The notes under the pieces were generated by a model. It worked only from the letters and a program-made list of their open reading frames with translations. It was not told the DNA's origin and ran no database searches. Below, one piece after another: positions 9,302-61,930 of a stretch of 64,000 nt of DNA; position 1 is the stretch's first letter; the number at the start of each line of letters is the position of its first letter. The stretch comes from Candidatus Omnitrophota bacterium (GTDB taxonomy: Bacteria > Omnitrophota > Gorgyraeia > Gygaellales > Profunditerraquicolaceae), in assembly GCA_028716245.1 (NCBI GenBank), contig JAQUQW010000001.1, positions 296,793 to 360,792 of the forward strand, given 5' to 3'. The translations under genes were made by a program, and so were the position numbers.

Positions 9302-9723
9302 GCCATTTGAAAATTTACATCGACGGGGCATCGAAAGGTAATCCGGGCGAAAGCGGGGTGGGAGTTGTTATTTATCAGGATGACCGCATTATCAAAAAAA
9401 TTTCAGAATATATAGGGAGCGCTACGAATAACGCGGCTGAATATACGGCCTTAATCTATGCCCTTGAGGAGGCGTTATTATTAAAAGCCAAGAGTTTAGA
9501 GATTAACACGGACAGCCAGCTTTTGGCCAGGCAATTAAATAAGCTCTACAAGGTTAAACACGCGGGTATAAAAAATTTTTACAACCGGGTAACGCATCTT
9601 TTGACGGGTTTTGATAAAGCGCTGATTATTCATATTCCGCGGGAGCAAAATAAATTAGCGGATAAATTGGCAACCGAAGCGGTTAAAAAAAGCAGGCAGA
9701 ACGTGGCTGCCCTATTGAGATAG
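9298..9723 (+). CDS. rnhA: ribonuclease HI
   Basis: IYIDGASKGNPGESGVGVVI, TNNAAEYTALIYAL and DSQLLARQL catalytic motifs of RNase H type 1. Confidence 0.85.
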   Translation: MSHLKIYIDGASKGNPGESGVGVVIYQDDRIIKKISEYIGSATNNAAEYTALIYALEEALLLKAKSLEINTDSQLLARQLNKLYKVKHAGIKNFYNRVTHLLTGFDKALIIHIPREQNKLADKLATEAVKKSRQNVAALLR

Positions 9724-10025
9724 GGAGGAAAGTCCGGGCTCCAGAGGATAACGTAACGGGTAACCCCCGTCTCTTAACGCAAGTTAAGACGGATTCGAGC
9801 CACAGAGACGAGTAGCAGCTAAGGCTGCGAGGTGAAACGCGGCAATCTCTACGTGGAGCAAAGCAGAATAGGAGATGAGCGCTGATCCGGCGCGTTCCGT
9901 ATTTGCGGGAAATAATCTCGGGTAAGCTGCTAAAGTTCCGGGAGAAATTCCGGGATTGAGAGGAATAGCCACTAATCGATGCGCAGATTCGCATCAAGAC
10001 AGAACCCGGCTTATTCTGCCTGCTT
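9690..10025 (+). ncRNA. rnpB: RNase P RNA (bacterial type A)
   Basis: Universally conserved GGAGGAAAGTCCGGGCTCC at 9724-9742 and ACAGAACCCGGCTTA at 9999-10013. P1 helix AGCAGGCAGAA (9691-9701) pairs with TTCTGCCTGCT (10014-10024). The 5' end overlaps the last 30 nt or so of rnhA. Confidence 0.8.
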
Positions 10026-10047
10026 AATTATTAAAGAGGAGGAAGTT

Positions 10048-11282: not shown

Positions 11283-11905
11283 TCTCTGGAATTACCGGAA
11301 AGGTTCTGGAAAAAGGTTTAAATTATTTAGTCCTGGATTTATGCGGGCTAAGTTATGAGGTTTTTATACCCACTTGCGTTATGCAGGGGCTTGATAAATC
11401 CATGGCTTGCGATGGTAAGATCTCCCTGTTAACCTATCATTATTATCAGGTTGAGCAAGCCAAGAGTATTCCCGTATTAATCGGGTTCTTAAGCCAGGTG
11501 GAAAAGGATTTTTTTGAAATATTTATCACGGTTTCCGGTATCGGCCCGCGGGCGGCGCTAAAGGCCTTAAATAAACCCATTTCATTAATCGCTAAAGCTA
11601 TTGATGAAGGTGATTTAGTTTTTTTAAAATCCCTTCCCGGTATCGGCGAGCAAAGGGCAAAAGAAATCGTGGCTAAGCTGCAGAATAAAGTAGGTAAATT
11701 CGGCCTGATCAAAGATCACGGTATAGAAGAAAAAACCGCCTGTAAAGATATATCCGAAGAGGCTTTGGATGTTTTGTTGCAATTAGAGTATAAAAGATCA
11801 GAGGCGCAGGGCATGATTAAGAAAGTTTTAGAAATGAATTCCGGGGTCAGCACTACCGAGGAGTTGTTGAATCTAGTGTATAAGCAAAAACGGGCTGGCA
11901 GGTAA
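11279..11905 (+). CDS. ruvA: Holliday junction branch migration protein RuvA
   Basis: The N-terminal OB fold (GKV....YLVLD) and HhH motifs (GIGPRAALKAL, LPGIGEQRAKEIV). Confidence 0.85.
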   Translation: MISGITGKVLEKGLNYLVLDLCGLSYEVFIPTCVMQGLDKSMACDGKISLLTYHYYQVEQAKSIPVLIGFLSQVEKDFFEIFITVSGIGPRAALKALNKPISLIAKAIDEGDLVFLKSLPGIGEQRAKEIVAKLQNKVGKFGLIKDHGIEEKTACKDISEEALDVLLQLEYKRSEAQGMIKKVLEMNSGVSTTEELLNLVYKQKRAGR

Positions 11906-15692: not shown

Positions 15693-16519
15693 AGATGTTT
15701 AATAAAGTAGTGATTATCGGTACCGGCTTAATCGGAGGGTCTCTGGGGCTGGATTTAAGAAAAAAGCATTTGGCTGGTCAGGTTATTGGCTTAAGCCGTA
15801 AAAAAGAAAACGCAAATTTAGCCAAAAGAAGCGGAGCGATTGATTCTGTCGGTCCATCTCTAGACGTAGTCAAGGACGCGGATCTGGTTATATTGGCTGC
15901 TCCGGTTGATGCGATTATGGATATGGCGCCTAAAATCGCCGATAAATTAAAAAAAGATTGCATAGTTATCGATGTTGGCAGCAGCAAAGAAAAAATAGTC
16001 TCCAAATTAAGCGCTCTTATCCCGAATTTTCTTGGCTGCCATCCTTTGACAGGCTCAGAGAAAAGAGGAGCCGCTAATCTTGGAGCGGGTATTTTTAGCG
16101 GTTCGGTTTGTGTTATTACCCCCACCCCTAAAACCGTCAAAAAAACATTAGAGAAAATCAAACTGCTTTGGCAAAAATTAGGATCTAGCGTGGTTATTCT
16201 TTCTGCGAAGAAACACGATCGGATTTTAGCTTCTACCAGCCACCTGCCGCATACGATAGCTTTTTCATTGATCGGCTCAGTCCCGAATCAATTCTTAAAC
16301 TTAAGTTCGGGGGGGCTAAAGGATACTACGCGAATCGCTTCTTCCGATGCCCGCCTTTGGAGCCAGATTTTCCTAAGTAACCGCGGTAATTTATTGGCCG
16401 CGCTTTCCTCCTTCCAGGTTAAACTCAACGCTTTAAAGCTTGCCTTAAAAAATAAGAATAAAAAACTTTTAACAAAAATTCTTGCATCTGCACAGAAAAA
16501 ACGAAAGAAACTAAGATGA
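15689..16519 (+). CDS. tyrA: prephenate/arogenate dehydrogenase
   Basis: [18 protein letters not shown]-binding motif and the HPLTGSE catalytic region. Confidence 0.8.
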
Positions 16520-17169
16520 TTATTGCTGTTGACGGCCCATCCGGGGCGGGAAAAAGCACGGTCGCCAGGATCTTAGCTAAGAAATTGGGATTTCTATATA
16601 TTGATACCGGAGCAATGTATCGGGCCTTAACCTTAAAAGCGTTAGAAAATAATGTGCCCATTAATGACCAGTCGCGGATTTTTAAGCTCGCCGAAGGAGC
16701 GAGGATAGGTTTACATAATAATCCCGATGGATCATTAAGTGTTATTTTAGACGGCAAAGACGTTTCTTTAGATATTCGCAGGCCCAGAATCACCCAAGTA
16801 GTTTCTGATCTGGCTAAGATTAAAGAGGTGCGCCAGGTATTGGTCAAGCTGCAGAGAGAACTTGGCCAAAAAGGGGATTGCGTTTTAGACGGCAGGGATA
16901 TTGGCACGGTAGTTTTTCCTGACGCGGCGAAGAAATTTTTTATCGATGCATCCCCGGAGGAGCGGGTAAACCGGCGCTTTAAAGAATTAAAAGGCTTAGG
17001 GCAGAATGTTTCAGAAAATGATGTTGCCAAAGATTTAGCCAATCGCGATAAGATCGATTCTACCCGCAAGGCTTCTCCATTACGTAAGGCAGAGGATGCA
17101 ATTTATATTGATACTACCAAACTTTCTATAGAGCAGGTAGTAGGTAAAATGATGGAATGTATAAGGTAA
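16516..17169 (+). CDS. cmk: cytidylate kinase
   Basis: [36 protein letters not shown]. Confidence 0.9.
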   Translation: MIIAVDGPSGAGKSTVARILAKKLGFLYIDTGAMYRALTLKALENNVPINDQSRIFKLAEGARIGLHNNPDGSLSVILDGKDVSLDIRRPRITQVVSDLAKIKEVRQVLVKLQRELGQKGDCVLDGRDIGTVVFPDAAKKFFIDASPEERVNRRFKELKGLGQNVSENDVAKDLANRDKIDSTRKASPLRKAEDAIYIDTTKLSIEQVVGKMMECIR

Positions 17170-18969
17170 ATGGATAAATCTCTCTTAAGGAATTTTTCGA
17201 TTATCGCCCATATTGATCATGGTAAATCTACTTTGGCTGACCGGATATTGGAGATAACCGGAGCGGTTGATCTGCGCCATAAAGGGGATCAACTGCTTGA
17301 TGATATGGAACTGGAAAAGGAACGAGGAATTACCATTAAAGCTTCAATGGTCAGGTTGAATTATTTTTCTAAAAAATTCAATCAAGAGTATACTCTAAAT
17401 CTTATTGATACTCCGGGGCATGTTGATTTTACTTATGAAGTATCTAAATCTTTGGCTGCCTGTGAAGGCGCTATCCTGGTGGTTGATGCCGGGCAGGGGA
17501 TTGAGGCCCAAACCGTCGGCAATTACTATCTGGCATTAGAAAATAACCTGCAGGTTATTCCGGTAATCAATAAAATTGATTTGATTTCCGCGGATATCCC
17601 TAAGGTAAAATCGCAGGTGGAAACCGTTTTAGGTTTTAAGGAGGAGGAAATTATCCTGGCATCAGCAAAGGAAGGGCGCGGTATTATTGAAATTTTAGAT
17701 AGAATTGTGGAAACGATTCCGGCTCCCGCAGGACAGGCGGATAATCCGCTTAAAGCATTAATTTTTGACTGCCGTTTTGATCCTTTTAAAGGCGTGGTAG
17801 TCTTTGTAAAAGTAATTGACGGGCAAATTTTCCCTAAAACCCAATTAAAAATGTTTAATGCCGGCAAAATTTATAAGATTGAAGAACTGGGGGTCTTTAA
17901 GGATTTAAAATATTCTGCGGTGGACTCCTTAACCTGCGGAGAGGTCGGTTATTTTACGGCTAACCTGCGTGACCCGCGAGAGGTGGTTATCGGAGACACA
18001 ATTACCGACCCTAAAAATCCCTGCGCTCAAGCTTTACCGGGTTACCGTAAAGTAAAGCCCCTGGTTTTTTGCGGAATTTATCCGGTTAATCCGGCGGATT
18101 TTCCGGAATTACGCGATGCTATGGATAAGTTAAAACTTTCCGATGCTTCTTTTGTGTTTGAGCCGGAAAATTCCCAATCATTCGGGACAGGTTTTCGCTG
18201 CGGCTTCCTGGGGCTCTTGCATATGGAGATTGTCCAGGAAAGGCTGGAGCGGGAGTATAACTTAAACCTTATCCTCACCGTGCCCAATGTAGTCTACCGC
18301 ATAAAAACAAAATCCGGAGAAGTTATCGAAGTAGATACGCCGGCCAAGCTTTGCGCTCCACAGGATATCGATGAGGCTCTTGAACCATATGCCAGTTTGC
18401 TAATGATCGTGCCGGTTGATTCTATCGAAGCGGTTTGCGATTTTAGCAAATCCCGCCGGGGAATTTTTATTTCAAATGAATATTTAGGCGAGGACCGCGT
18501 AAAGGTGGTGTTTTCTATACCTCTTTCTGAAATAATTGTCGATTTTTATGACCGGATAAAATCGATTACCCGCGGCTATGGCTCAATGGATTACGAAGTT
18601 AAAGAATATTTATCGACAAAATTAGTGAAACTGGATATACTGTTAAACGGCCAGATTTGCGACGCTTTTTCTTCCTTAATGTTTAAAGAAAAGGCCACCT
18701 CAAGGGCCCATCTTTTAGTAAGTAAATTGAAAGACCTGATTCCCCGGCAGCTGTTTGAAGTATCGATCCAGGCAGCGGTAGGAAGCCAGATTTTAGCTTC
18801 TGAGAAAATACGTTCAGTAGGCAAGCATGCCACAAGTAAGTGTTCTGGAGGGGATATTACGCGTAAGCGCAAACTCTGGGAAACCCAGAAAAAAGGCAAA
18901 AAAAGGCTAAAGCAATTCGGTAAGGTCGAGATCCCGCAAGAAGCATTTTTGGAGGTATTAAAAATATGA
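17170..18969 (+). CDS. lepA: elongation factor 4
   Basis: IRNFSIIAHIDHGKSTLADR, DTPGHVDF, and the LepA C-terminal domain. Confidence 0.95.
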   Translation: MDKSLLRNFSIIAHIDHGKSTLADRILEITGAVDLRHKGDQLLDDMELEKERGITIKASMVRLNYFSKKFNQEYTLNLIDTPGHVDFTYEVSKSLAACEGAILVVDAGQGIEAQTVGNYYLALENNLQVIPVINKIDLISADIPKVKSQVETVLGFKEEEIILASAKEGRGIIEILDRIVETIPAPAGQADNPLKALIFDCRFDPFKGVVVFVKVIDGQIFPKTQLKMFNAGKIYKIEELGVFKDLKYSAVDSLTCGEVGYFTANLRDPREVVIGDTITDPKNPCAQALPGYRKVKPLVFCGIYPVNPADFPELRDAMDKLKLSDASFVFEPENSQSFGTGFRCGFLGLLHMEIVQERLEREYNLNLILTVPNVVYRIKTKSGEVIEVDTPAKLCAPQDIDEALEPYASLLMIVPVDSIEAVCDFSKSRRGIFISNEYLGEDRVKVVFSIPLSEIIVDFYDRIKSITRGYGSMDYEVKEYLSTKLVKLDILLNGQICDAFSSLMFKEKATSRAHLLVSKLKDLIPRQLFEVSIQAAVGSQILASEKIRSVGKHATSKCSGGDITRKRKLWETQKKGKKRLKQFGKVEIPQEAFLEVLKI

Positions 18970-19541
18970 GTTTAAAAAAGAAATCGGTTTTGCGCGATTG
19001 GGTTGAATCAATTATCGTTGCCTTTATTTTGGCTATGGTGATCCGGACCTTTGTCGTCCAGGCTTTTAAGATTCCCACTGGGTCAATGCGCATGACCTTG
19101 TTGGAAGGAGACCTTATACTGGTAAATAAGTTTATTTACGGGGCAAAAGTCCCTTTTACTAGCCATCGCCTGCCCGCGGTACGCCAGCCAAAGCGGGGGG
19201 ATGTGGTTGTTTTTATTTATCCCGAAGATAAGAAAAAAGATTTTATTAAAAGACTGGTTGGCCTGCCGGGAGAAACCATTGAGATTAAAGGCGGTTCAAT
19301 TTATGTAAATGATAAACCGGCACCCGAGCCGATCTTTAATCAAATTTATTATTATAATCGGGGCGATTTTGCTTCCGAAGGCCAGAAGATCCGCGTGCCC
19401 GCTAACAGTTATTTTGTTTTAGGAGATAACTCTGTTTCTTCAAAAGACAGCCGTTATTGGGGTTTTGTGCCTAAAGACGACCTGTTGGGCCAGGCCTTGA
19501 TTGTTTACTGGCCGCCGCAGCGGATCAGGTTGATTAAATGA
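18966..19541 (+). CDS. lepB: signal peptidase I
   Basis: GSMRMTLLEGDLILVNK (Ser box), KRLVGLPGE, GDNSVSSKDSRYWGFV. Confidence 0.85.
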   Translation: MSLKKKSVLRDWVESIIVAFILAMVIRTFVVQAFKIPTGSMRMTLLEGDLILVNKFIYGAKVPFTSHRLPAVRQPKRGDVVVFIYPEDKKKDFIKRLVGLPGETIEIKGGSIYVNDKPAPEPIFNQIYYYNRGDFASEGQKIRVPANSYFVLGDNSVSSKDSRYWGFVPKDDLLGQALIVYWPPQRIRLIK

Positions 19542-20101
19542 ATATAGCCAATAAAATTTCGACATTTCGTATTTTAAGCGTGCCATTTTTTATTGCCTGC
19601 TTGCTATACTATGCGCCAGAAAGGGCCTATCTAAAAGACTTGGCCTTAGTCATATTTATCCTAGGAGTAATCTCTGACGGCTTAGACGGTTTTATCGCCA
19701 GAAAAGCCAAAATACAATCAAAGGCCGGATTGATTTTAGACCCGTTAGGGGACAAGTTTTTATTAATGAGCGCATTTATATTCCTGTCTCCGATAAGCAG
19801 ATTAGAGTTGAAGTTTCCGCTTTGGGTTAGTTTTATCGTGATTTCGCGGGACCTGATCATAATTATGGGGGCAGTGGTTATTTATATGGTCAAACAGTGT
19901 ATTGATGTTTATCCTACAAAATGGGGGAAACTTACAACTACATTCCAGATGCTTTCGGTTATTTGTATTTTATTACAATGGAGGCTGGTTGCCTTGATTT
20001 GGTGGTTGGCGGTGATTTTTACCGTTATTTCGGGGATAGATTACGTAAAGAGAGGATTTAAAATTCTATATGCTTTGGACAATCGCCGCGTTACTGCTTA
20101 G
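19538..20101 (+). CDS. pgsA: CDP-diacylglycerol--glycerol-3-phosphate 3-phosphatidyltransferase (CDP-alcohol phosphatidyltransferase family)
   Basis: DGLDGFIARK......GLILDPLGDK motif; multi-TM protein. Confidence 0.8.
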   Translation: MNIANKISTFRILSVPFFIACLLYYAPERAYLKDLALVIFILGVISDGLDGFIARKAKIQSKAGLILDPLGDKFLLMSAFIFLSPISRLELKFPLWVSFIVISRDLIIIMGAVVIYMVKQCIDVYPTKWGKLTTTFQMLSVICILLQWRLVALIWWLAVIFTVISGIDYVKRGFKILYALDNRRVTA

Positions 20102-20693
20102 TTATTTATTAGGCTCTATACCGACAGCTTATCTTTTTGGCAAGGCCCTGAAAGGGATCGATATCCGTAAAGTCGGTTCAGGTAATGTGGGAGCAACCAA
20201 TGCCTTGCGCGTTTTGGGAAAAAGGGCTGGGATTACAGTTCTGTTTCTAGATATATTAAAGGGTTTTGTCGCCATTATTTTACTGGGAGATTTTTTTGCG
20301 GATAAACCTCATTTATTGCAAGCACAGAACTTACGTATTTTCATGGGGTTATGTTGTATTTGCGGCCATAACTGGACGATATTTTTACAGTTTAAAGGAG
20401 GAAAAGGAATTGCCACTTCTTTTGGGGTATTGCTTGGCCTCTCAATGAGAGTGCCTGGATTAAACATAGTAATGGGATTAATAATTTTAACTTGGTTTCT
20501 CGTTTTTTTTAGCTTCAGAATGGTCTCGTTAGCTTCGATCATGGCAGCCTTAGCCCTGCCAATTTTCTGCCTCTTTTTCAAACAGCCGTTTTCGCTCACA
20601 TCCTTGAGCTTATTGCTTTGTATTTTCGTCATCATTCGACATTCAACAAATCTAACCAGGATATTCCAAGGTAAAGAACCCCGCCTTTATTAA
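20070..20693 (+). CDS. plsY: glycerol-3-phosphate acyltransferase PlsY
   Basis: LGSIPTAYLFGK...KVGSGNVGATNALRVLGK motifs. Overlaps the pgsA 3' end by about 30 nt. Confidence 0.85.
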   Translation: MLWTIAALLLSYLLGSIPTAYLFGKALKGIDIRKVGSGNVGATNALRVLGKRAGITVLFLDILKGFVAIILLGDFFADKPHLLQAQNLRIFMGLCCICGHNWTIFLQFKGGKGIATSFGVLLGLSMRVPGLNIVMGLIILTWFLVFFSFRMVSLASIMAALALPIFCLFFKQPFSLTSLSLLLCIFVIIRHSTNLTRIFQGKEPRLY

Positions 20694-20787
20694 AGCAAAC
20701 GCTTTCTTTTTTCGGCAAAATCGTATTGATTCGGCCGAGTTTTACCTGCATACTTTTCTTACCCATCAGCCACAGAGGGAAGCAAAT

Positions 20788-21126
20788 ATGCAGGCTCTGC
20801 TTTACAAAAACCTAACTTCTTCCGACCGCAGCCGTAAAATCATTACCAGTTCAGAGGTAACTGATAAAGAAGGCATCCACAGCGTGGTGCGCCGGCATTT
20901 TGCCTGTATGGTAAAGCAATTAGAAAACGAAAAAGCGGAAAAACAACAGCCTTATCTTTATGTCTTAAAAGAAAGGAATACCAAACAGAAGCGGGAGCAT
21001 TTCTTTTGCAAGATAAAGGGGGGCCTTCTGGCGGAAAACAAGGGAAAATTACTGCATATTGCATTCGTCCACACCTTAAGCGTTGAGCTTACCGCCTCGG
21101 AAAAATTAAGCGGACAAATCAGCTGA
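20788..21126 (+). CDS. hypothetical protein (112 aa), no recognisable domain
   Basis: An ORF with a weak GAGGGA RBS lying in an otherwise empty 475-nt gap. Not recognised. Confidence 0.3.
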   Translation: MQALLYKNLTSSDRSRKIITSSEVTDKEGIHSVVRRHFACMVKQLENEKAEKQQPYLYVLKERNTKQKREHFFCKIKGGLLAENKGKLLHIAFVHTLSVELTASEKLSGQIS

Positions 21127-23967: not shown

Positions 23968-26900
23968 TTATTCAAGATAAATATCGATTTGCTTAATTTG
24001 GCGTGATCTTACTTTTTGGGCATAAAGCGGGCCAAGCGTTGCGGATTTTATTTCTATAGGGTGATCGTTTTCAAAAATGATTATTTTGGAAATTTTTGCC
24101 GCGTTTTTTCCAAAAGTATTTTTTCTTTTCGGATTATGGTAAGTTACCCGGATTTGGCTTAAGAAATTAAAAGCATATTTTCCATTCCTATCGAATAACC
24201 AGCCGGCCAGGTTTGGTTTAAATGTTAAATTAAGCTCTCCGTTATTATCTAAAGAAAATGGGCAGGCCCCGGCATTCATGATCAACCAGATATTCAGGAA
24301 TTCCGCGGTTGAGCCGGAGAGCCTGGCGACAAATCCGTTTCCGTGCAATTTTTTATCGGCAAACACGCTGCTTACCAGAAAAGAGGAATTTTCAAGTATG
24401 CTGCGCCCGTATCTTTGCGGGTCCTGGAAAGGGATGAGCACGTTTTTAAATTCCGCGTAAAATTCATCAATCAACCCGCCTTTAAGCAGCTCCAGGATAT
24501 ATTTATACTCCATATGCAGCCAGATGGATTCATTTTCCAGCCAACCGGGAGTGAATACCCGACATCTGCCGATTTCTTCCGGCATAGAACCAAGGTTGGA
24601 AGTCACTTTATACATTCTAAGTTTTTTATCAAAAAGCGCGCTTTTCTTGGTTGATTTATGCAAAGACAAGAGATGTTTTTTGTCTTCGGTAAGCCTTAAG
24701 GCATGCATTTGGCCTTCAAGAAAGAGAGGGACTGTTTTTTGGGTAAATTTTTTCGGTTTTATACGGTGATCATCAATCAAATCATATTCGGTAATCTCAT
24801 TAATAAAATATGAATTATAAATCCCTTGCCTGCTGTTAAAAGCTTTGCTTAATCCCAACTCAACTTTCTTTAATGCCGCGTCCACAAAACTAATAAGCTT
24901 GGCAACGGCCAAATTTACCGAAATCCCGGAAAAACCAAGGCGTATATTAGAACGGTATGTTTCTTTTAGCGCATTGCTCTTATCCCAATAAGTAAAATCA
25001 TCCTCAGAGAACAAGAGAGAGAGCCCCTCGATAAAATTAGAGATTTCATCGGCAAGTTCAATTTCATTAATCTTTGAATTTTCTAACGCCCCTTTGATCA
25101 TCTTAAGCAGGCGTTTTAGTTCAAAGGTTTCACAACTGGAGGAACCCAAAAGCGCCGGCAGCCCGTTAAGAGAATCAAACCAGTTAGGTTTATTGGCTTC
25201 CATCTCGATACCGGTACCAAAAGGGTCAAGGGAGGCCAATTTATTCGCCGCCAGGCACAGAAGTTTAGCGATAAGGGTAGTGTAATAGATTTGGCCGCTG
25301 CCGGACTGTGCCCTTAAAAGATGCGGATTATCCAAACGTTTGCGCAGTATTTCTTTTTTGGTGGCATCAAGCACAAGGGAGTGCAATTGGCGCGGCAGGC
25401 CGTTATAAAGGACGTATCTTTCGCTGCGCGGCCTGACTAATTCGGCGTTATCATAGAAGGAAAAAACTTTTCGGTGAAAGAATAATTCATTAAATCTTTC
25501 AGGGTAAATCCCCAGGTAACTGTCGATTAAGTCCAGGTTATAGGTCCAGTGGTCAGTCCAAAAGCCTTCAGCATGCTCAGCTTCCTGTGATTTTAGCGCG
25601 GAAGAGAGTATCAGATTTAGAAAATCATCATAAGAACATTTAAGTTTTATTTTATTATCTTCAATAAAGATAATTAACTCACCTGGGGTGAAGGTTTTTT
25701 TAAAAAAGGCGCTAAGTTTATCGATATCATTTTTTTCAGCCACGGCTGCCAGCAGCCTGTAAAGATCCAGGTTGTCTTTGAGCAGGAAACTTTCGCCTTT
25801 TACGATCAGGGGATTAAAACCGTCAGCCTGGATTAGATTCATGAAGAAGACAATATTTTCATCGTTTATCTCAGGATTAAACCAGGGATCATTGCGCCGG
25901 TTTTGGTTTGTATCGCGGTAATTACCGTTGCCTTGGGAAAAATAAGTCGGCTGGAGCACAAACTTATTGTAATCCCTTTCCAGGTCACCGTGTTTACGTG
26001 AATAAAGATAAAAAACCACCCCGGATTTAAAAACTTCCGGGTAGCCGCCGCGCATAATGTTATCCAGGTAAGTCTGTCCGGCGTATAAATCAAAAGCTTT
26101 AGAGCTGCTTTGAGTTAAAATATCATCTTTTAATTCCCGGATTAGTTTGGAACTTTCCTTCATTTTGGTTTCTATGTAACCGAATTTCATAATTTTTCCA
26201 ACCGAACTATTTAAAGTTTTGGTGTCGCGGACCTGGCCGATTACCGAATAAAATGTTTTTTGCTCTTTGGCCCCCAGCTCAAGGCTCATTAAAAGCAAAG
26301 CGCTGGGAGTTTTACTTTTGGTCATTTGCTGGGCAGGATATTGAAATTTATGCTTGGCCAGGAATTGGGCAGGGTAAGAGAAATCGGTTACTGCCCCAAA
26401 AACAGCTTCAGGGTCGACTATTGGCCGGATAAGTTGGGATTTGGTACCATTAAAATGAAAACCCATATAAAAATTCCCGTGCTCAATATGCACTACCTCC
26501 GGCCGGTCCGAAGGGTCAACTGCTAATTTATAAAAAGGGACATCATTATTCAGGTTATCGGTATTCATCCAGGCTTCGATAGTGCGGCCGAGTTTCTTCA
26601 GGAAAAAATTGTTCGTGCCAAAAGGGACAATCTGCGGCAGACCGTCAATAATCTCCATGGACCTGGGTTTAGGCGACGTATTTTCAATAGAAACGGTCCG
26701 GCTTAAGCCGGCGTAGGTATCATTAGGAATATTAAAATATTCTACGCGTGTTTTTATCCCTAATGTCCGGTTTTCTTCTTCCAAAATGAGTTTATCCGAA
26801 TCTATACGCATAGAGTTGGTTATCTGGTACTTTAAATTCAGGCAGCCGTTGTGAAACGGCTCGTAATAGAGAAGTTTTTTTGCGGATTTAATTTTAATGA

Positions 26901-27168
26901 AGGTGCGGAATCCTTGGGCAGAAACAAACTGCCAGGATTTATTCGCCGGAAAGAATTCTAAAATCGACTGGTCTTTATCCTTGGTGCCGAAGCTGCTGAT
27001 ACACTGGCCGCGGTTAACGTAGAAGACCCACATGGGGATCCCGTATTTTCCGGCAATCCCCGGAAAAAAGTTAGCGAAAGGTTTGGCGTAATTGTAATTT
27101 TGGATAACAAATTCGCCCTGTTTATTTAAATAATACTTTACTTTTGCTTGCTTAGATTTTATTTCCAT
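23968..27168 (-). CDS. GH94-like glycoside phosphorylase family protein (1066 aa; cellobiose / beta-1,2-glucan phosphorylase-like six-hairpin fold)
   Basis: N-terminal GH94-like beta-sandwich (FVIQNYNYAKPFANFFPGIAGKYGIPMWVFYVNRGQ), an NWFDSLNGL segment resembling the GH94 GDWNDGLN motif, and a size similar to long GH94 enzymes. Confidence 0.5.
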   Translation of the reverse strand: MEIKSKQAKVKYYLNKQGEFVIQNYNYAKPFANFFPGIAGKYGIPMWVFYVNRGQCISSFGTKDKDQSILEFFPANKSWQFVSAQGFRTFIKIKSAKKLLYYEPFHNGCLNLKYQITNSMRIDSDKLILEEENRTLGIKTRVEYFNIPNDTYAGLSRTVSIENTSPKPRSMEIIDGLPQIVPFGTNNFFLKKLGRTIEAWMNTDNLNNDVPFYKLAVDPSDRPEVVHIEHGNFYMGFHFNGTKSQLIRPIVDPEAVFGAVTDFSYPAQFLAKHKFQYPAQQMTKSKTPSALLLMSLELGAKEQKTFYSVIGQVRDTKTLNSSVGKIMKFGYIETKMKESSKLIRELKDDILTQSSSKAFDLYAGQTYLDNIMRGGYPEVFKSGVVFYLYSRKHGDLERDYNKFVLQPTYFSQGNGNYRDTNQNRRNDPWFNPEINDENIVFFMNLIQADGFNPLIVKGESFLLKDNLDLYRLLAAVAEKNDIDKLSAFFKKTFTPGELIIFIEDNKIKLKCSYDDFLNLILSSALKSQEAEHAEGFWTDHWTYNLDLIDSYLGIYPERFNELFFHRKVFSFYDNAELVRPRSERYVLYNGLPRQLHSLVLDATKKEILRKRLDNPHLLRAQSGSGQIYYTTLIAKLLCLAANKLASLDPFGTGIEMEANKPNWFDSLNGLPALLGSSSCETFELKRLLKMIKGALENSKINEIELADEISNFIEGLSLLFSEDDFTYWDKSNALKETYRSNIRLGFSGISVNLAVAKLISFVDAALKKVELGLSKAFNSRQGIYNSYFINEITEYDLIDDHRIKPKKFTQKTVPLFLEGQMHALRLTEDKKHLLSLHKSTKKSALFDKKLRMYKVTSNLGSMPEEIGRCRVFTPGWLENESIWLHMEYKYILELLKGGLIDEFYAEFKNVLIPFQDPQRYGRSILENSSFLVSSVFADKKLHGNGFVARLSGSTAEFLNIWLIMNAGACPFSLDNNGELNLTFKPNLAGWLFDRNGKYAFNFLSQIRVTYHNPKRKNTFGKNAAKISKIIIFENDHPIEIKSATLGPLYAQKVRSRQIKQIDIYLE

Positions 27169-27272: not shown

Positions 27273-27330
27273 TTGATGGAATCCAGGATGTTGACTTTTA
27301 ATAAAAGGGTGTTAGAATATTAAGAAATAA

Positions 27331-27420
27331 CACCCCGCGCTACCTGGCGTTTAATTGAATTGCGCCAGTATCCGCCTCGTGGCGGATTATAATGCGGGTG
27401 TGCCCTTGTGGGCAAGGAGG
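27331..27420 (+). promoter_or_regulatory. structured leader element copy A (ACCCCGCGC ... GCGGGTG family) immediately upstream of gatC
   Basis: CACCCCGCGC pairs with GCGGGTG, enclosing hairpins CTGGCG/CGCCAG and TCCGCC/GGCGGA. A terminal hairpin GTGCCC-TTGT-GGGCA abuts the SD AAGGAGG. It is homologous to the elements at 33631, 50851 and 61881. Confidence 0.4.
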
Positions 27421-27425
27421 TTCTG

Positions 27426-27713
27426 ATGCCAATAGATCAAGAAACGGTTAAACATATCGCGCATTTATCGCGTATCGAATTGCAGCCTAATGAGTTAGAA
27501 AAATTATCCGGACAGTTGGATGGCATACTGGGTTTCATCGATAAAATAAGTAATTTGAATATAGACAGGGTTAACCCTACAAGCCATATCTTACCAATCA
27601 GCAATGTGTTGCGGGAGGATACGCCCCGCGCTTCTTTATCCCCGGAAAAAGCTCTGGAAAATGCACCGAGCAAAAAAGGGAGCTTCTTTAGTGTCCCAAA
27701 GATAATCGAATAA
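27426..27713 (+). CDS. gatC: Asp-tRNA(Asn)/Glu-tRNA(Gln) amidotransferase subunit C
   Basis: [39 protein letters not shown] at 27426 with an AAGGAGG RBS. The ORF-track start at 27408 was trimmed. Confidence 0.85.
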
Positions 27714-33630: not shown

Positions 33631-33727
33631 ACCCCGCGCTAAAGACACCCGACGCTAAGAGGTATTGTGTAGGTGTGCGCTAAGTAGCGCAAATTGCGCG
33701 GGTGTGCGCTTTCTGCGCAAGGAGGAG
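33631..33727 (+). promoter_or_regulatory. structured leader element copy B (longest copy, with internal duplication) upstream of the mgtC-bactofilin operon
   Basis: ACCCCGCGC ... GGTATTGTGTAGGTGTGCGCTAAGTAGCGC ... GCGCGGGTG, then hairpin TGCGC-TTTCT-GCGCA, then AAGGAGG. The 3' module co-varies with copy A. Confidence 0.4.
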
Positions 33728-44833: not shown

Positions 44834-46690
44834 ATGCCCCCGCAAAATAAACCTAAATCTAATAAGAACAATAAGTTTAAACGCTTCCCTTTTGGCTGGT
44901 TGCTGGCTTTTTTCCTGTTCATCATCCTGATGAACTTTTTCAGCAATATTCCGATTACCGGCGTCCCCAAAGAAATCACCTACAGTCAGTTTTATAAAAT
45001 TTTAAAGGATAATCCTGACCGCATAAAACATCTCGTTAAAACCGAAACCATTTTACAGGGCGATTACGCGGATAACTCAAAATTCTTTCTGAATATCCCG
45101 GAGAATGACCCGGAATTACTCGGCCTGATGCGGCAAAATTTAAAAAATTTTGAAGTTAAGCCGGCGCGCACATTCTGGGTTACTTTACTTTTCAATTTAG
45201 GGCCGATACTATTACTTATTTTCTTCTGGTGGATGATGGCCGCCCGGGGAGAACAATTGGGCAGTAAAATTATGACTTTTGGAAAAGTTAGATCTAAAAT
45301 CCAAAGTAATAATGAGAAGGCTACTTTTGATGATGTTGCCGGAGTTGATGAAGCAAAAGAAGAACTAAAAGAAGTAATTGAATTCCTTAAAGATCCTAAG
45401 AAATTCCAAAAGCTGGGAGGCAAGATTCCAAAAGGGGTACTTTTGGTCGGGCCTCCGGGATGCGGAAAAACATTGATTGCCCGGGCAGTTGCCGGTGAAG
45501 CCAATGTGCCTTTTTTCAGTATATCCGGCTCTGATTTTGTCGAGATGTTCGTGGGAGTAGGGGCAAGCCGGGTAAGGGATTTATTCGACCAGGGCCGTAA
45601 AGCCGGGATCGTTTCCGGTAAAGGGGCGATAATCTTTATCGATGAAATTGACGCGGTTGGCCGCTTGCGTTTTTCCGGAATCGGCGGAGGCAATGATGAA
45701 CGCGAACAAACCCTTAACCAGTTACTGGTTGAAATGGATGGCTTTGACAGCCAGCAGGGTTTGATCCTGATTGCCGCGACTAACCGTCCGGATACATTGG
45801 ACCCGGCGCTTTTGCGTCCGGGAAGATTTGACCGGACAATTATCGTCAACCTTCCGGATATAAAAGGGCGCGAAGAAATACTCAAAGTGCATACCCGTAA
45901 GATCAAACTGGCTCCTTCAGTTAATTTAAAATCCGTGGCCAGCCAGACTCCGGGTTTCTCCGGCGCGGATTTGGCCAATCTCTGCAATGAGGCGGCGCTG
46001 GTGGCTGCGCGTAATAATAAAGAAGCGGTGGAAGAAATCGACCTGGATAAATCCGTCGAAAGAGTGTTGATGGGGCCGGAGAAAAAGAGCCATATTATGT
46101 CTAAGAAGGAAAAGGAGATAACTTCTTTCCATGAATCCGGGCACGCTTTGCTTTCTTTGCTGCTGCCCGAAGTTAATCCTTTAAAGAAGGTCTCGATAAT
46201 CCCTAGAGGCTTGGCCGGAGGATATACTTTTACACCTCCGTTAGAAGACCGGCATTATTGGACCAAGGCGGAATTAATCGCCGAGATTACGATGATGCTT
46301 GGGGGCAGGGCTTCGGAAGAGTTAAACCTAAACGGGGTCACTACCGGCGCGCAGAACGATCTGGAGGTGGCCACAGCTATGGCCAGGCGAATGGTTACGC
46401 AATTTGGAATGTCGGAAAAGCTGGGAAATTTAACCTTAGGTAAAAGAGAAGGGCTGGTATTTTTGGGCCGCGATATTATGGAGGAGAGGAACTACAGCGA
46501 ACAAACCGCCCATATCATTGACGAAGAGGTAAAAAAAATAATTGATGATGCTTATGGAAAAGCAATCGAGCTATTAAAAAATAATCTGGATAAGCTTAAG
46601 CTTCTGGCAAGTAACCTTTTAGAGAAAGAAGTTTTAGGGGCAGAGGATGTAAAAAAATTACTGGGGATTGAAAAAAGCGACTTAGTTTAA
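44834..46690 (+). CDS. ftsH: ATP-dependent zinc metalloprotease FtsH
   Basis: Two N-terminal TM helices, AAA+ ([19 protein letters not shown]), and the zinc-binding HESGHAL. Confidence 0.95.
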
Positions 46691-50746: not shown

Positions 50747-50833
50747 GGGCAGGTACCCAAGTTGGTCAAAGGGGACAGACTGTAAATCTGTTGCACTTGT
50801 GCTTCAGAGGTTCGAATCCTCTCCTGCCCACCA
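50747..50833 (+). tRNA. tRNA-Tyr (anticodon GUA), long variable arm, CCA encoded
   Basis: Acceptor stem GGGCAGG/CCTGCCC, anticodon loop CTGTAAA, and a long extra arm. Confidence 0.85.
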
Positions 50834-50850
50834 TTTTAATACTTTCGCAG

Positions 50851-50900
50851 CACCCGGCGCTAATAGGTATTGCGTCGGTGCGCGCTAGGTAGCGCGGGAG
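50851..50900 (+). promoter_or_regulatory. structured leader element copy C, inserted between tRNA-Tyr and tRNA-Gly; its 3' end merges with the tRNA-Gly acceptor stem
   Basis: CACCCGGCGCTAATAGGTATTGCGTCGGTGCGCGCTAGGTAGCGCGGGAG is about 85% identical to the central part of copy B (33631-33690). The terminal GCGGGAG is the first 7 nt of tRNA-Gly. Confidence 0.4.
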
Positions 50901-50964
50901 TAGTTCAGTGGTAGAACAATAGCCTTCCAAGCTATATATGGGGGTTCGATTCCCCTCTCCCGCT
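50894..50964 (+). tRNA. tRNA-Gly (anticodon UCC)
   Basis: Acceptor stem GCGGGAG/CTCCCGC, anticodon stem ATAGC/GCTAT with loop CTTCCAA, discriminator U. Confidence 0.85.
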
Positions 50965-60661: not shown

Positions 60662-61874
60662 GGGTTTAGTTGTTCAGAAATACGGCGGATCATCGGTTGC
60701 CAACGTCCAACGCATTCAAAAAGTCGCCCAAAGGGTGGTCGGTTACAGCAAAAAAGGTTATCAACTGGTAATTGTTGTTTCAGCCTTGGGAGATACTACC
60801 GATGAATTAATTGCATTGGCGGATAAAATCAATCCCAATCCTTCGCAGCGGGAAATGGATATGTTGTTATCAACCGGAGAGCAGATCTCTGTGGCTCTTC
60901 TAGCCATGGCAATTCATAAATTAGGAGCCCGGGCGATTTCGTTTACCGGTTCGCAAGTCGGGATCATTACCGACACCAGCCACACCCAGGCCAGGATTAT
61001 CAAAATAAACGGGAATAAAATTAAAGAAGAGCTAAGAAAAGGCAATATCGTTATTGTCGCCGGTTTCCAGGGGGTAACTTTAAATCAAGATATTACTACT
61101 TTGGGCAGGGGAGGATCGGATTTAACTGCCGTAGCCCTGGCTAAAGAACTCAAAGCCGATTCTTGCGAAATTTACACGGATGTCGAAGGAATTTATACTA
61201 CCGATCCGCGGATTGAACCCCGGGCTAGAAAAATAAAAGAGATTACTTATGATGAGATGCTGGAAATGGCCTCACTCGGGGCCCAGGTAATGCAGGCGCG
61301 GTCCATCGAAGTAGCAAAAAAATTTGATGTGCCCTTGCATGTGCGTTCATCATTTAGCGATAAAAGCGGAACGATGATCATTAAGGAGGTAAAAAAGATG
61401 GAAGATGTGGTGGTCAACGGCGTAACTCTAAATAAAAATGAGGCAAAAATCACTCTTTGCGGGGTTCTGGATAAGCCGGGGGTTGCGGTAAAATTATTCA
61501 AGAACCTGGCAGACGCGGGGGTAAGCGTCGATATGATCGTCCAAAATGTAAGCCATACCCGCTCAACGGATATATCATTTACGATTGCCAAATCCGAAAG
61601 CGCCAAAGCCGCTAAAATCACTAAAATGGTAGCCAGGAAAATCAGAGCAGGAGAGGTCCTGCTGGATGAAGATATTGCCCAGGTTTCTATCGTCGGAGTA
61701 GGTATGAAATCGCACCGTGGTGTCGCGGCTAAAATGTTCGGGATACTGGCAGATAATAAAATTAACATTGAGATGATCTCTACTTCCGACATCAGCATAT
61801 CCTGTATTATCAAAAAAAAGAACGCCGAGATAGCGGTAAGAAAATTACATCAGGAGTTCGGGTTAAATAAATAG
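60654..61874 (+). CDS. lysC: aspartate kinase with two ACT domains
   Basis: VVQKYGGSSV, the TTLGRGGSD region, and C-terminal tandem ACT domains. Confidence 0.9.
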   Translation: MHKGLVVQKYGGSSVANVQRIQKVAQRVVGYSKKGYQLVIVVSALGDTTDELIALADKINPNPSQREMDMLLSTGEQISVALLAMAIHKLGARAISFTGSQVGIITDTSHTQARIIKINGNKIKEELRKGNIVIVAGFQGVTLNQDITTLGRGGSDLTAVALAKELKADSCEIYTDVEGIYTTDPRIEPRARKIKEITYDEMLEMASLGAQVMQARSIEVAKKFDVPLHVRSSFSDKSGTMIIKEVKKMEDVVVNGVTLNKNEAKITLCGVLDKPGVAVKLFKNLADAGVSVDMIVQNVSHTRSTDISFTIAKSESAKAAKITKMVARKIRAGEVLLDEDIAQVSIVGVGMKSHRGVAAKMFGILADNKINIEMISTSDISISCIIKKKNAEIAVRKLHQEFGLNK

Positions 61875-61880
61875 GTAAGG

Positions 61881-61930
61881 CACCCCGCGCTTAGCGGAAT
61901 TGTGCGGGTGTTGTCTCCGTAGACAAGGGG
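61881..61930 (+). promoter_or_regulatory. structured leader element copy D (minimal unit) immediately upstream of cimA/leuA-like gene
   Basis: CACCCCGCGC-TTAGCGGAATTGTG-CGGGTG, then hairpin TTGTCT-CCGT-AGACAA, then GGGG and the ATG at 61936. The 3' hairpin co-varies with copies A and B. Confidence 0.4.

Follow-up and report, generated by a model that had tools for sequence, protein, structure and literature searches.

Several described elements resemble the repeat reported here. REPs and their BIME arrangements are short (20-40 nt) imperfect palindromes with a bulge, present extragenically in high copy number and co-transcribed; they are recognized in hairpin form, are restricted to particular lineages and can influence the stability of mRNA. 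IS200/IS605 elements and their miniature derivatives (PATEs) are recognized through imperfect hairpins that carry an extrahelical base. MIRUs measure 46-100 bp, lie in gene sense within short intra-operon gaps, vary in tandem number and overlap stop and start signals. The Correia (CREE/NEMIS) repeats of Neisseria and the ERIC repeats of enterobacteria are co-transcribed, fold in mRNA, alter processing or stability and occupy strain-polymorphic sites. Finally, 5′-terminal stem-loop stabilizers (of the ompA type, and in Bacillus with a strong Shine-Dalgarno sequence, SD) place a stable hairpin immediately before a strong SD that is accessible. The ultra-small, uncultured Omnitrophota have compact genomes, of which 176 complete ones are described in bioRxiv 10.64898/2026.06.07.730766, and to our knowledge their non-coding repertoire is essentially uncharted. 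Our analysis of a 64-kb window (the whole stretch of 64,000 nucleotides from an Omnitrophota contig) has shown that four of its leaders are copies of one previously undescribed 46-nt two-hairpin repeat. The preliminary description had reported a recurrent motif at four sites, and all four were confirmed in position and on the plus strand (Table 1). No description of the repeat was found in the Omnitrophota literature searched.

Table 1. Positions of the repeat copies and adjoining signals in the window.
Feature	Position	Strand	Sequence	Remarks
Promoter-like hexamers	27291-27318	+	TTGACT (27291-27296), TAGAAT (27313-27318)	Upstream of copy A; context, outside the repeat
Copy A, nested HP1	27331-27400	+		Sequence, fold, comparison with relatives
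Copy A, outer 5′ arm	27331-27340	+	CACCCCGCGC	
Copy A, inner HP1 variant	27341-27370	+	TACCTGGCGT-ttaattgaatt-GCGCCAGTA	
Copy A, inner hairpin	27371-27386	+	TCCGCCTCGTGGCGGA	
Copy A, linker	27387-27393	+		
Copy A, outer 3′ arm	27394-27400	+	GCGGGTG	
Copy A, HP2	27401-27414	+	TGCCCTTGTGGGCA	
Copy A, SD	27416-27420	+	GGAGG	
gatC start codon	27426-27428	+	ATG	
Copy B, nested HP1	33631-33704	+		Sequence, fold; inner HP1 45.7 bits
Copy B, outer 5′ arm	33631-33639	+	ACCCCGCGC	
Copy B, 5′ part of loop	33640-33645	+	TAAAGA	
Copy B, inner HP1	33646-33675	+		
Copy B, inner hairpin	33676-33691	+	TGCGCTAAGTAGCGCA	
Copy B, 3′ part of loop	33692-33695	+	AATT	
Copy B, outer 3′ arm	33696-33704	+	GCGCGGGTG	
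Copy B, HP2	33705-33719	+	TGCGCTTTCTGCGCA	
Copy B, SD	33721-33725	+	GGAGG	
mgtC start codon	33731-33733	+	ATG	
Copy C, HP1	50851-50880	+	CACCCGGCGC-taataggtatt-GCGTCGGTG	47.4 bits
Copy C, HP2	50881-50896	+	CGCGCTAGGTAGCGCG	GGAG directly after
Copy D, HP1	61881-61910	+	CACCCCGCGC-ttagcggaatt-GTGCGGGTG	52.5 bits
Copy D, HP2	61911-61926	+	TTGTCTCCGTAGACAA	
Copy D, SD	61927-61930	+	GGGG	
cimA start codon	61936-61938	+	ATG	

The module is about 46-48 nt long and consists of a first hairpin, HP1, and an abutting second one, HP2. HP1 is a 30-nt hairpin of 9-10 bp with a bulged C and an 11-nt loop, CAC[C]CNNCGC-UNANNGGWAUU-GCGNNGGUG, standing on a conserved CAC/GUG base. The loop is conserved as UNANNGGWAUU or, in a short-loop subfamily, as UANNGGAU; loop, bulged C and base are kept in both subfamilies, while the stems vary by free covariation. 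Judged by eye from the alignment, roughly two in three copies carry GGA in the loop and one in three GGU. The consensus of the 5′ flank is A-A-G-R. HP2 follows with zero linker and is 14-17 nt long and variable in sequence, with 5-6 freely covarying base pairs, its loop being NNGU or UUUCU in most cases. Directly 3′ of it lies either the SD core, which reads GGAGG or GGGG, or the 5′ end of tRNA-Gly (copy C). A hairpin of 5-6 bp was present at 0 nt after HP1 in 110 of the 129 copies collected, which makes the short hairpin noted earlier, followed by AAGGRGG and a start codon, a real and general feature. HP2 was also considered as a feature of all 5′ UTRs, and this was rejected since the other clear-promoter leaders of the window (genes starting at 1679, 21170 and 44834) lack an HP2-like hairpin.

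Two other elements of the preliminary description stood in part. Its “GGWATTGYG box” is real; it is not a separate element, being the 3′ half of the HP1 loop plus the start of the 3′ arm. Likewise, the pairing described as a long-range P1 helix in copies A and B is real, but it belongs to an outer HP1, as its stem; a second complete HP1 and a small hairpin lie in the loop of this outer hairpin, so that a full module is nested within another HP1. Five repeat units were counted in the window. Minimum-energy prediction folded copy A into a three-way structure (-44.9 kcal/mol, z -2.9). With filters off, a covariance model built on the core hairpin returned exactly three strong matches in the 64 kb, at 61877-61914 (52.5 bits, E 2e-12), 50847-50884 (47.4 bits) and 33642-33679 (45.7 bits), while copy A scored weakly (8.3 bits). 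The string ACCCSGCGC occurs five times in the window against 0.94 expected, and none of 100 shuffles reached five; the fifth match, at 45801 within the ftsH coding sequence, is a chance match. The last three nucleotides of HP2 in copy C are nucleotides 1-3 of tRNA-Gly(UCC) (50894-50964), and HP1 of copy D begins 6 nt past the aspartate-kinase stop codon (61872-61874). By reading of the sequence, the gatC start codon would be the ATG at 27426, a correction of the earlier description. The TTGACT/TAGAAT pair upstream of copy A is a putative promoter; a TTGACT/TAAAAT pair is conserved in the relatives L201-L204 whether the repeat is present or not.

Covariation was strong in both hairpins, in agreement with the earlier claim of a structured motif with compensatory changes. 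Free pairs of HP1 were GC in 64, CG in 44 and AU in 10 cases, and at a second position GC in 87 and AU in 26, while double compensatory changes were found at all six pairs of HP2. The covariation score was 0.462 compared to 0.134 in shuffles, with 0 of 500 shuffles as high, and RNAalifold independently predicted both hairpins. Covariation alone cannot tell selection on RNA from selection on a hairpin recognized as single-stranded DNA. The asymmetry of G-U and A-C pairs was tried as an RNA test and set aside, since its outcome was mixed (5:0 in the HP1 interior, 4:10 at the terminal pair, 7:8 in HP2) and it cannot separate RNA from top-strand single-stranded DNA anyway. There is no U run of the kind that an intrinsic terminator has; HP1 is followed by HP2 and then by GGAGG.

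An exact-pattern scan of one genome per species found, among the matches listed, at least 120 copies in 68 assemblies, nearly all labeled Omnitrophota, including Candidatus Velamenicoccus archaeovorus LiM. LiM (NZ_CP019384.1), whose culture and published metatranscriptome are described in PMC12583861 and PMC13153191, is the only culture with the repeat. In 629 kb of control loci that encode CimA relatives there were 0 true units, compared to 137 hairpin matches in 938 kb of unit-bearing loci. Viral contigs gave 0 matches, which disfavors a phage origin. An Rfam 15 scan of the whole window at gathering thresholds returned only RNase P RNA and seven tRNAs, and permissive E-value scans of copies A, B and D gave chance-level matches only (E 1.7-9.7); no Rfam family matches, in line with the earlier failure to place the motif among known riboswitches or leaders. 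Copies are 75% identical within one genome and 70% between genomes, and near-identical pairs are few, which gives no sign of a recent burst. At the same time, 96-99% of stem positions are still paired in these diverged copies. This looks like long-term constraint on each copy and favors a host-level function, in RNA or otherwise.

Copies are not randomly placed with respect to genes: in 64 of 129 an SD and a start codon lie 20-36 nt downstream in sense, compared to 1 in the antisense control. The gap between HP2 and SD is 0 nt in most leaders, and in the class of HP2 with a 6-bp stem and a 4-nt loop, GGA follows directly in 40 of 65 units; other right flanks are AAUUG in nested copies and various sequences in orphans. 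Many copies lie within operons, and 27 of 129 units start 0-10 nt past an upstream stop codon. The genes downstream (ndk, rpsF, ssb, rpsT, ilvC, panD, pfk, glyA, gatC, mgtC, cimA and tRNAs) are unrelated housekeeping genes and tRNAs, as diverse in function as the four window sites had suggested, and no functionally coherent set was found across species. Further, the module recurs at the same genes in several species, namely ndk (3 loci), rpsF (2), ssb (2), rpsT (2) and tRNA-Gly. Selection for translation could also produce an HP2 flush with an accessible SD. The module is equally flush at the 5′ ends of tRNA-Gly and tRNA-Pro, where the right flank is again GGRG; this points to a preference for the target or junction and away from selection for translation. 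About 18 orphans (about 14% of copies) are antisense to all neighboring genes. Although 107 of 129 units are on the G-rich strand, orientation does not come purely from the replication strand, since several units follow a minority-strand gene and the antisense orphans exist. HP1 was also considered as a promoter-proximal or transcription-start element and rejected, because -10-like hexamers 5-13 nt upstream are only mildly enriched (39 against about 30 expected) and so many units start just past a stop codon.

The four window sites vary in presence and absence among relatives whose flanking proteins are 79-94% identical. Based on four proteins, relatedness is (((window, L201), L202), L203), L204, with identities of 93.5%, 86.8%, ~83% and ~79%, respectively. 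Site A is nested in the window, has a homologous nested form in L203 and is empty in L201, L202 and L204; the junction reads aaatat/GGAGG when empty and aaataa/[84 nt]/GGAGG in the window, and GGAGG-TTNTG-ATG is common to copy A and the empty sites of its relatives. Site B is empty in L204 (TTAAA/GGAGG), single in L201 and L202 and nested in the window. Comparison of empty and filled sites revealed no target duplication at A or B. The tRNA-Tyr/tRNA-Gly spacer of site C lacks the module in L205 and L208, and L206 has several units there. Site D, between the aspartate-kinase gene and cimA, is empty in L121-L125 and has a degenerate homologue in L206. At the purE junction, a unit is present in L204 alone, with an exact 34-nt flank duplication. 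These comparisons show that gain and loss affect the module as one discrete block, usually placed flush 5′ of a pre-existing GGRG; in mRNAs this GGRG is the SD core, and in tRNA-Gly and tRNA-Pro it is the G-rich 5′ end. The module is otherwise found in the loop of a resident HP1 (nested) or behind a resident HP2 (tandem). The distribution requires repeated clean loss or gain, and clean absence in close relatives indicates that the module is dispensable for the genes. A rule of insertion 3′ of AAGR, with duplication of AAGG, was considered; copy D, the flank consensus and many of the nested and tandem copies agree with it, but it fails at site A (left flank AATAA, empty site without AA) and at site B.

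Block-wise gain and loss against ribosome-binding sites is the behavior of a mobile structured module and not of a gene-specific RNA switch. Taken together, we think it probable that the leaders belong to a new interspersed structured repeat of the REP/MITE/MIRU kind, which is mobile or spreads by duplication and becomes part of the transcript as a 5′ leader, and that any role in RNA would be generic and not that of a riboswitch. The fallback reading of the preliminary description, a lineage-specific small mobile motif, gave the best fit. Since the module lies in sense between a promoter or stop codon and the SD, it is necessarily co-transcribed. In the RNA, HP1 and HP2 are predicted to fold independently and to leave the SD single-stranded directly 3′ of HP2. 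The most plausible generic effect would be that of a stabilizing 5′ stem-loop that insulates or protects the ribosome-binding site with no gene-specific switch. The conserved bulge, base and loop may form a recognition surface for one trans-acting factor, either a copying or excising enzyme acting on the hairpin in single-stranded DNA or an RNA-binding protein. Either an enzyme specific for the hairpin or template switching guided by microhomology, between copies that have AAGR and GGAGG at their flanks, may account for its spread. Counting against a mobile repeat, no consistent target duplication is seen: sites A and B have none, and the insertion in L204 has one of 34 nt. Further, no copying enzyme (transposase, reverse transcriptase or other) has been linked to the repeat, and a low-power tblastn search of 1.65 Mb of loci, a small fraction of each genome, with approximate IS608 TnpA and E. 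coli RAYT queries gave 0 matches.

One could go further and suppose a self-propagating “portable 5′ leader”, a hairpin element that homes to the 5′ edge of an SD-like GGRG without destroying it, copied by a dedicated enzyme or through an RNA intermediate, with a host factor reading the same hairpin. We regard this extension as unlikely. A tRNA-Gly leader is its possible ancestor, as the HP1 stem repeats the acceptor pairs of tRNA-Gly. A retron-type reverse transcriptase has been reported in the LiM genome (PMC13153191). If this extension is true, insertion would recruit genes into a shared post-transcriptional regime, and the element would be a bacterial one whose target is the ribosome-binding site itself.

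Among the rival explanations, a selected leader RNA for one global factor is possible, although we hold it only tentatively. HP1 would dock a lineage-specific RNA-binding protein that sets translation or stability across a large housekeeping regulon, with changes in copy number representing regulon turnover by duplication; the GG(A/U) of the loop and the GGA of the SD, ~30 nt apart, would form a CsrA-like two-site arrangement. Such a factor would account for the features that stay fixed in both subfamilies while the stems covary, for the sense orientation ahead of start codons, for recurrence at orthologous ndk, rpsF, ssb and rpsT, and for within-genome copies that have diverged and yet remain paired. 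The pair R(-1):U(+31), which is AU in 42 copies, GU in 18 and AC in 0, is also in its favor. It does not sit well with the insertion of whole 46-nt blocks, including nesting that destroys the outer loop, with clean absence in close relatives whose genes can do without the module, or with the antisense orphans and the flush placement at tRNA 5′ ends. GGU in place of GGA in about a third of loops and the near-pairs of HP2 (GU 7, AC 8), which show no RNA-type asymmetry, also argue against it, and a low-power tblastn search of the 1.65 Mb with approximate CsrA and FliW queries gave 0 matches. Much of the same evidence bears on the proposal of a processing or punctuation signal, which from sequence we judge to be quite improbable. 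An endonuclease would cut at HP1/HP2 in polycistronic mRNAs and in precursors of tRNAs, so that HP2 would stay as a hairpin protecting the 5′ end before the SD, or the tRNA leader would be released. Units between co-directional genes, in 27 of 129 cases just past a stop codon, units directly 5′ of tRNA-Gly and tRNA-Pro and the uniform position relative to the downstream functional RNA would be expected of it; polymorphic sites, orphans and nesting would not, and some copies, such as copy A, which starts 12 nt after the -10 box, apparently lie at the 5′ end of a primary transcript where no cut is needed.

The main reading of the preliminary description, a translational switch that responds to a ligand or condition by alternately occluding the SD with its 3′ arm, now appears very unlikely. 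CCTTG can pair with CAAGG in copy A alone, and the minority variant UCCUCC-NNGU-GGAGGA (L078, L087) does place the SD within HP2. Nevertheless, the proposed occlusion is absent from the minimum-energy fold of copy A and is not a feature of the family: over 60 leaders, the mean probability of the SD core being unpaired was 0.68, with values below 0.3 in 7%, and no conserved alternative pairing sequestering the SD or start codon was seen, the minimum-energy folds leaving the SD free. Functionally unrelated downstream genes, tRNAs among them, and sites that are empty in close relatives argue against the switch as well. We give equally little credence to a double-stranded DNA operator bound by a dimeric transcription factor. 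In its favor, the module has the form of an inverted repeat, and a -10 box stands just upstream of some copies, but the arms covary with no fixed half-site sequence, the bulge is asymmetric, the loop is both conserved and asymmetric, most copies are away from promoters, and many are inside operons.

These observations indicate that the tiny intergenic gaps of Omnitrophota are remodeled by a 46-nt structured block at ribosome-binding sites, and that close relatives differ, owing to the module, in how the 5′ UTRs of their housekeeping genes are structured. The conserved bulge and loop of HP1 point to a candidate protein partner, and if the targeting of the SD edge is enzymatic, it would represent a new insertion specificity. 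In practice, gene callers place some starts inside the repeat, e.g. in the cimA homologue of L206, and scans for structured RNA will keep flagging it as a candidate riboswitch.

Compared to described systems, the repeat resembles REPs in form, with an HP1 that is a 30-nt imperfect palindrome and at least 120 extragenic copies among the matches listed. In contrast, REPs favor the 3′ side of genes and frequently form inverted pairs (REPINs, BIMEs), whereas the Omnitrophota repeat is 5′, flush with the SD, in sense and in direct tandem or nested arrangements, with no inverted doublet among 120 loci. The REP hallmark GT(A/G)G stands 5′ of the hairpin; here that position has A-A-G-R, and GTRG, although common in the repeat, falls within the HP2 loop and 3′ arm. 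REPs also have a cognate RAYT (TnpA-REP) in their genome, with REPs on its flanks, and no RAYT was found near the repeat in the low-power search of 1.65 Mb with approximate queries. The lack of duplication at sites A and B, the apparently seamless loss and the insertion beside a short specific sequence may be shared with IS200/IS605 elements, which insert beside a fixed sequence of 4-5 nt. Unlike these, the repeat has its preferred GGRG flank on the 3′ side of the strand carrying G-T pairs, is only 46 nt long with hairpins reaching both ends, shows one insertion with a 34-nt duplication and had no TnpA in the 1.65 Mb (approximate query). The hallmarks of classical DDE-derived MITEs, terminal inverted repeats and a short target duplication of constant length, are lacking, as the two ends of the module, HP1 and HP2, are not inverted copies of each other and duplications are 0 (A, B) or 34 nt (L204). 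MIRUs do not form two-hairpin palindromes and have no sequence in common with the repeat, and their link to genes is by small overlapping ORFs, whereas 12 upstream ORFs merely end now at UAA or UGA in the HP1 loop. Correia and ERIC elements, at 100-155 bp, differ in their terminal inverted repeats, TA target duplication (Correia) and lack of a fixed relation to the SD. Finally, ompA-type and Bacillus stabilizers are single-gene features, whereas the Omnitrophota repeat is a dispersed family with a conserved loop.

Our studies have confirmed by direct sequence inspection that the motif occurs at four sites, all on the plus strand of the window, 5′ of gatC (copy A), mgtC (copy B), tRNA-Gly (copy C) and cimA (copy D). 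The string ACCCSGCGC was found five times in the window versus 0.94 expected. The fifth match, at 45801, is due to chance, lying within the ftsH coding sequence where it encodes ...DPALLRPG.... Side-by-side comparison of the copies gave a 30-nt hairpin (HP1) with the consensus CAC[C]C-NN-CGC / U-N-A-N-N-G-G-W-A-U-U / GCG-NN-G-GUG, comprising a 9-10 bp stem, a single bulged C and an 11-nt loop. A second hairpin of variable sequence (HP2) follows at 0 nt in every window module. In copies A, B and D, HP2 leads directly into GGAGG or GGGG, with the start codon 5-10 nt on, and in copy C it runs directly into the GGAG of the tRNA-Gly acceptor stem. When the whole window was searched with an HP1 covariance model and filters switched off, matches were confined to the sites of copies A-D. 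Because nearly all window genes lie on the plus strand, the window alone cannot tell whether unit orientation tracks genes.

HP1 elements of the four window copies (window-relative positions)
Feature	Position	Strand	Basis or remark
Copy D HP1, single unit	61881-61910	+	sequence
Copy C HP1, single unit	50851-50880	+	sequence
Copy A outer HP1 stem	27331-27340 with 27394-27400	+	composite copy
Copy A inner HP1, complete	27341-27370	+	inside outer HP1, plus small hairpin
Copy B outer HP1 stem	33631-33639 with 33696-33704	+	composite copy
Copy B inner HP1, complete	33646-33675	+	inside outer HP1, plus small hairpin

The preliminary description could match the motif to no riboswitch or leader, and this is borne out: at Rfam 15 gathering thresholds the window contains RNase P RNA and seven tRNAs alone, with no family at copies A-D, and scanning Rfam permissively gave nothing better than chance for copies A, B and D. 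No mention of the repeat was found in the Omnitrophota literature searched. The RNase P RNA is of bacterial class A (9692-10027; 166.7 bits), and spurious entries of the mechanical ORF list overlap it.

To describe distribution, an exact-pattern scan (ACCCNNCGCTNNNNGGWATTGYGNNGGT) was performed on a collection comprising a single genome for each of 185,579 species, for which we estimate ~4 chance matches. It returned at least 120 stretches, from 68 assemblies among the matches listed. The labels of these listed matches are almost all Candidatus Omnitrophota or Omnitrophica, and the complete genome of Ca. Velamenicoccus archaeovorus LiM also carries a match. About a dozen of those listed are co-assembly MAGs labelled Planctomycetales/Planctomycetia, with one each labelled Deltaproteobacteria and Margulisiibacteriota; from proteins common to other matches, we infer that such MAGs would mostly be Omnitrophota or binning noise. 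The viral collection yielded 0 matches to ACCCNNCGCTNNNNGGWATTGYGNNGGT, and control loci that encode CimA relatives (629 kb in all) contained no true units. A pattern-free hairpin scan gave 137 matches in 938 kb of unit-bearing loci versus 1 in the 629-kb controls, and uncovered a second HP1 subfamily, in which the loop is 8 nt long (UANNGGAU) and the upper stem covaries freely.

At the two HP1 stem positions that the search pattern did not fix, covariation is near-perfect among 123 copies (GC 64, CG 44 and AU 10 at one; GC 87 and AU 26 at the other), with a score of 0.230 versus 0.083 for shuffled alignments (0/500 shuffles reach 0.230). Copies found without the pattern also covary where it was fixed (CAC[C]U...A-GUG for CAC[C]C...G-GUG; GCC/GGC or GCU/AGC for CGC/GCG). 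HP2 lies at 0 nt behind 110 of 129 units. Among HP2s of 6 bp with a loop of 4 nt there are 23 different stems, and double compensatory changes occur at 6/6 pairs (score 0.462 versus 0.134 for shuffles). RNAalifold independently predicted both hairpins. This covariation is strong evidence that HP1 and HP2 are selected hairpins. The compensatory changes from which selection on RNA structure had been proposed thus hold, but covariation fits a hairpin acting as RNA or as single-stranded DNA alike and does not say which.

Synteny around gatCAB-...-tsaD-mgtC is kept in four relatives (L201-L204). Based on four proteins, relatedness is (((window, L201 93.5%), L202 86.8%), L203 about 83%), L204 about 79%; L205 belongs to the L202 genome and L206 to that of L204. 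At the gatC site, all five share a promoter-like TTGACT/TA(A/G)AAT pair. L201, L202 and L204 are empty there, with ...aaatat running straight into GGAGG-N5-ATG, and the window has an 84-nt nested module (a module within the loop of another HP1) exactly between these flanks. L203 has a larger nested form homologous to the window's. To account for this pattern, two or more events sharing the same clean boundaries are required. The divergent minus-strand gene upstream of gatC (23968-27168) encodes a 1066-aa protein with no Pfam match on record, and its synteny is kept in L201, L202 and L204, repeat present or not.

At the mgtC site, L204 is empty (11-nt gap, TTAAA|GGAGG), L201 and L202 have a single short-loop unit plus HP2, and the window has this unit with an extra module in its loop and a compensatory stem change (GG/CC to CG/CG). 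L203 carries an unrelated repeat here, with arms GTCATTGCGAG...CTCGCAATGAC (16136-16335), in a gap that is empty or holds the HP1 module in relatives. Arms resembling these occur upstream of cimA homologues in three loci from other metagenomes (L151, L173, L197). The tRNA-Tyr/tRNA-Gly spacer is empty in L205, where it measures 20 nt, and also in L208, and L206 has two units. At 10936-11216 of L205 (Omnitrophota MAG STD1_64, JAQURC010000002), a group I intron (RF00028, 90.7 bits) splits the anticodon loop of tRNA-Tyr(GUA), which is uninterrupted in the window (50747-50833), L206 and L208; for Ca. Velamenicoccus archaeovorus, a group I intron has been reported in the 23S rRNA (PMC13153191). In L121-L125, whose CimA proteins are 82-91% identical to the window's, only 4-11 nt separate the aspartate-kinase gene from cimA, with no unit between them, and the more distant L206 has a degenerate homologue of the module with the same left flank. 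At this site (L206 20520-20580), the HP2 of the degenerate module (TGGTCTTCATAAGACAA) runs directly into ATG without a Shine-Dalgarno (SD) sequence, and the public gene call begins at a GTG within the HP1 3′ arm.

The reverse case is a unit present at the purE/cdhD junction in L204 alone, with 34 nt from the end of purE duplicated exactly, in direct orientation, on its two sides (17766-17799 = 17848-17881). Here purE reads into HP1 and ends ...LINGTPR at the loop TAA; the window's ends ...LINRG. The L202/L205 genome is empty at the gatC and tRNA-Gly sites, yet has units elsewhere (L087, L114).

With regard to placement, 64 of 129 units are followed by an SD, a start codon and an ORF of 60 codons or more, which begins 20-36 nt past HP1 (mode 26), versus 1 in the antisense control. 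The downstream genes are diverse and housekeeping, with ndk, rpsF, ssb and rpsT recurring across species. Fold predictions leave the SD mostly unpaired (mean probability 0.68 over 60 leaders; below 0.3 in only 7% of them), so the SD occlusion suggested earlier is not a feature of the family. An HP2 variant in L078 and L087, UCCUCC-NNGU-GGAGGA, has the SD itself as 3′ arm pairing with an anti-SD-like 5′ arm, and only in these copies does sequestration look built in. On the upstream side, 27 of the 129 units begin no more than 10 nt past the upstream gene's stop codon, and in 12 the upstream ORF terminates at the HP1-loop UAA or UGA. Approximately 18 orphan units run antisense to all of their neighbouring genes, and most of them fall in a subfamily with the HP2 loop UUUCU.

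Units precede 7 of 47 tRNA genes in unit-bearing loci, tRNA-Gly in 6 of the 7, with further cases at tRNA-Pro beyond this count. In all tRNA cases the HP2 3′ arm continues into the 5′ end of the tRNA. The flank past HP2 (GGAG, GGTG, GGGG or GGAC) is of the same kind as the SD core. A palindrome, CGCGGGATACTCCCGCG, was also observed upstream of tRNA-Gly(UCC), in up to three repeats (L206 11200-11360; L208 about 11820-11840); it consists of both acceptor-stem strands linked by TAC. In L208, an HP1 unit at 15966 precedes a truncated tRNA-Pro-like start, adjoined by a run of small ORFs and a DUF3854/D5_N primase gene (16187-20855), probably an integrated element at tRNA-Pro.

Taken together, the module is a discrete block that has been gained and lost over 6-20% protein divergence, and it stacks in nested and tandem forms, usually flush with a pre-existing GGRG. 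An interspersed repeat that is mobile or duplicative behaves in this way; a gene-tied regulator does not. Since tRNA 5′ ends show the same flush placement, unit position argues for a junction or target preference and not for selection on translation alone. Compact intergenic gaps (a 5′ UTR of ~10 nt at the empty gatC site; operon gaps of 2-12 nt) must also filter which insertions survive. Copying could involve an HUH-type enzyme specific for the hairpin, which would fit the bulged base, the lack of duplication at the gatC and mgtC sites and seamless loss; however, neither the flank geometry nor the 34-nt duplication fits. Microhomology-guided template switching between copies (AAGR left, (A)AGG-AGG right) is another candidate, and direct repeats either side of the hairpin would also account for clean deletions. 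A reverse-transcribed RNA may be a third.

The module may also have an RNA-level or host-level role. Copy divergence with kept pairing, loop, bulge and base suggests constraint on individual copies, and for this reason we retain a global factor as a less likely alternative. Identity is 75% within genomes versus 70% between them, with few near-identical copies, yet 96-99% of stem positions remain paired. The HP1 loop, bulge and base are conserved in both subfamilies and across the 68 assemblies among the matches listed, and the pair R(-1):U(+31) is AU in 42, GU in 18 and AC in 0. Against such a factor, nesting destroys the outer HP1 loop, antisense orphans exist, GGU loops occur, and HP2 has no excess of G-U over A-C (7 versus 8). 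Whatever the module's origin, sense copies are necessarily transcribed, and would place a stacked pair of hairpins immediately ahead of a free SD. At the RNA level, the most economical effect might be that of a generic 5′ insulator or stabiliser.

In conclusion, the recurrent structured motif of the preliminary description is real and extends beyond the window, whereas its riboswitch-like reading is not supported, given block-wise gain and loss among relatives and no family-wide SD occlusion. The motif represents an Omnitrophota repeat family not described before, whose closest counterparts in kind are REP, MIRU or Correia-type elements. Its two-hairpin anatomy, its nesting and its location at the ribosome-binding-site edge set it apart from these.
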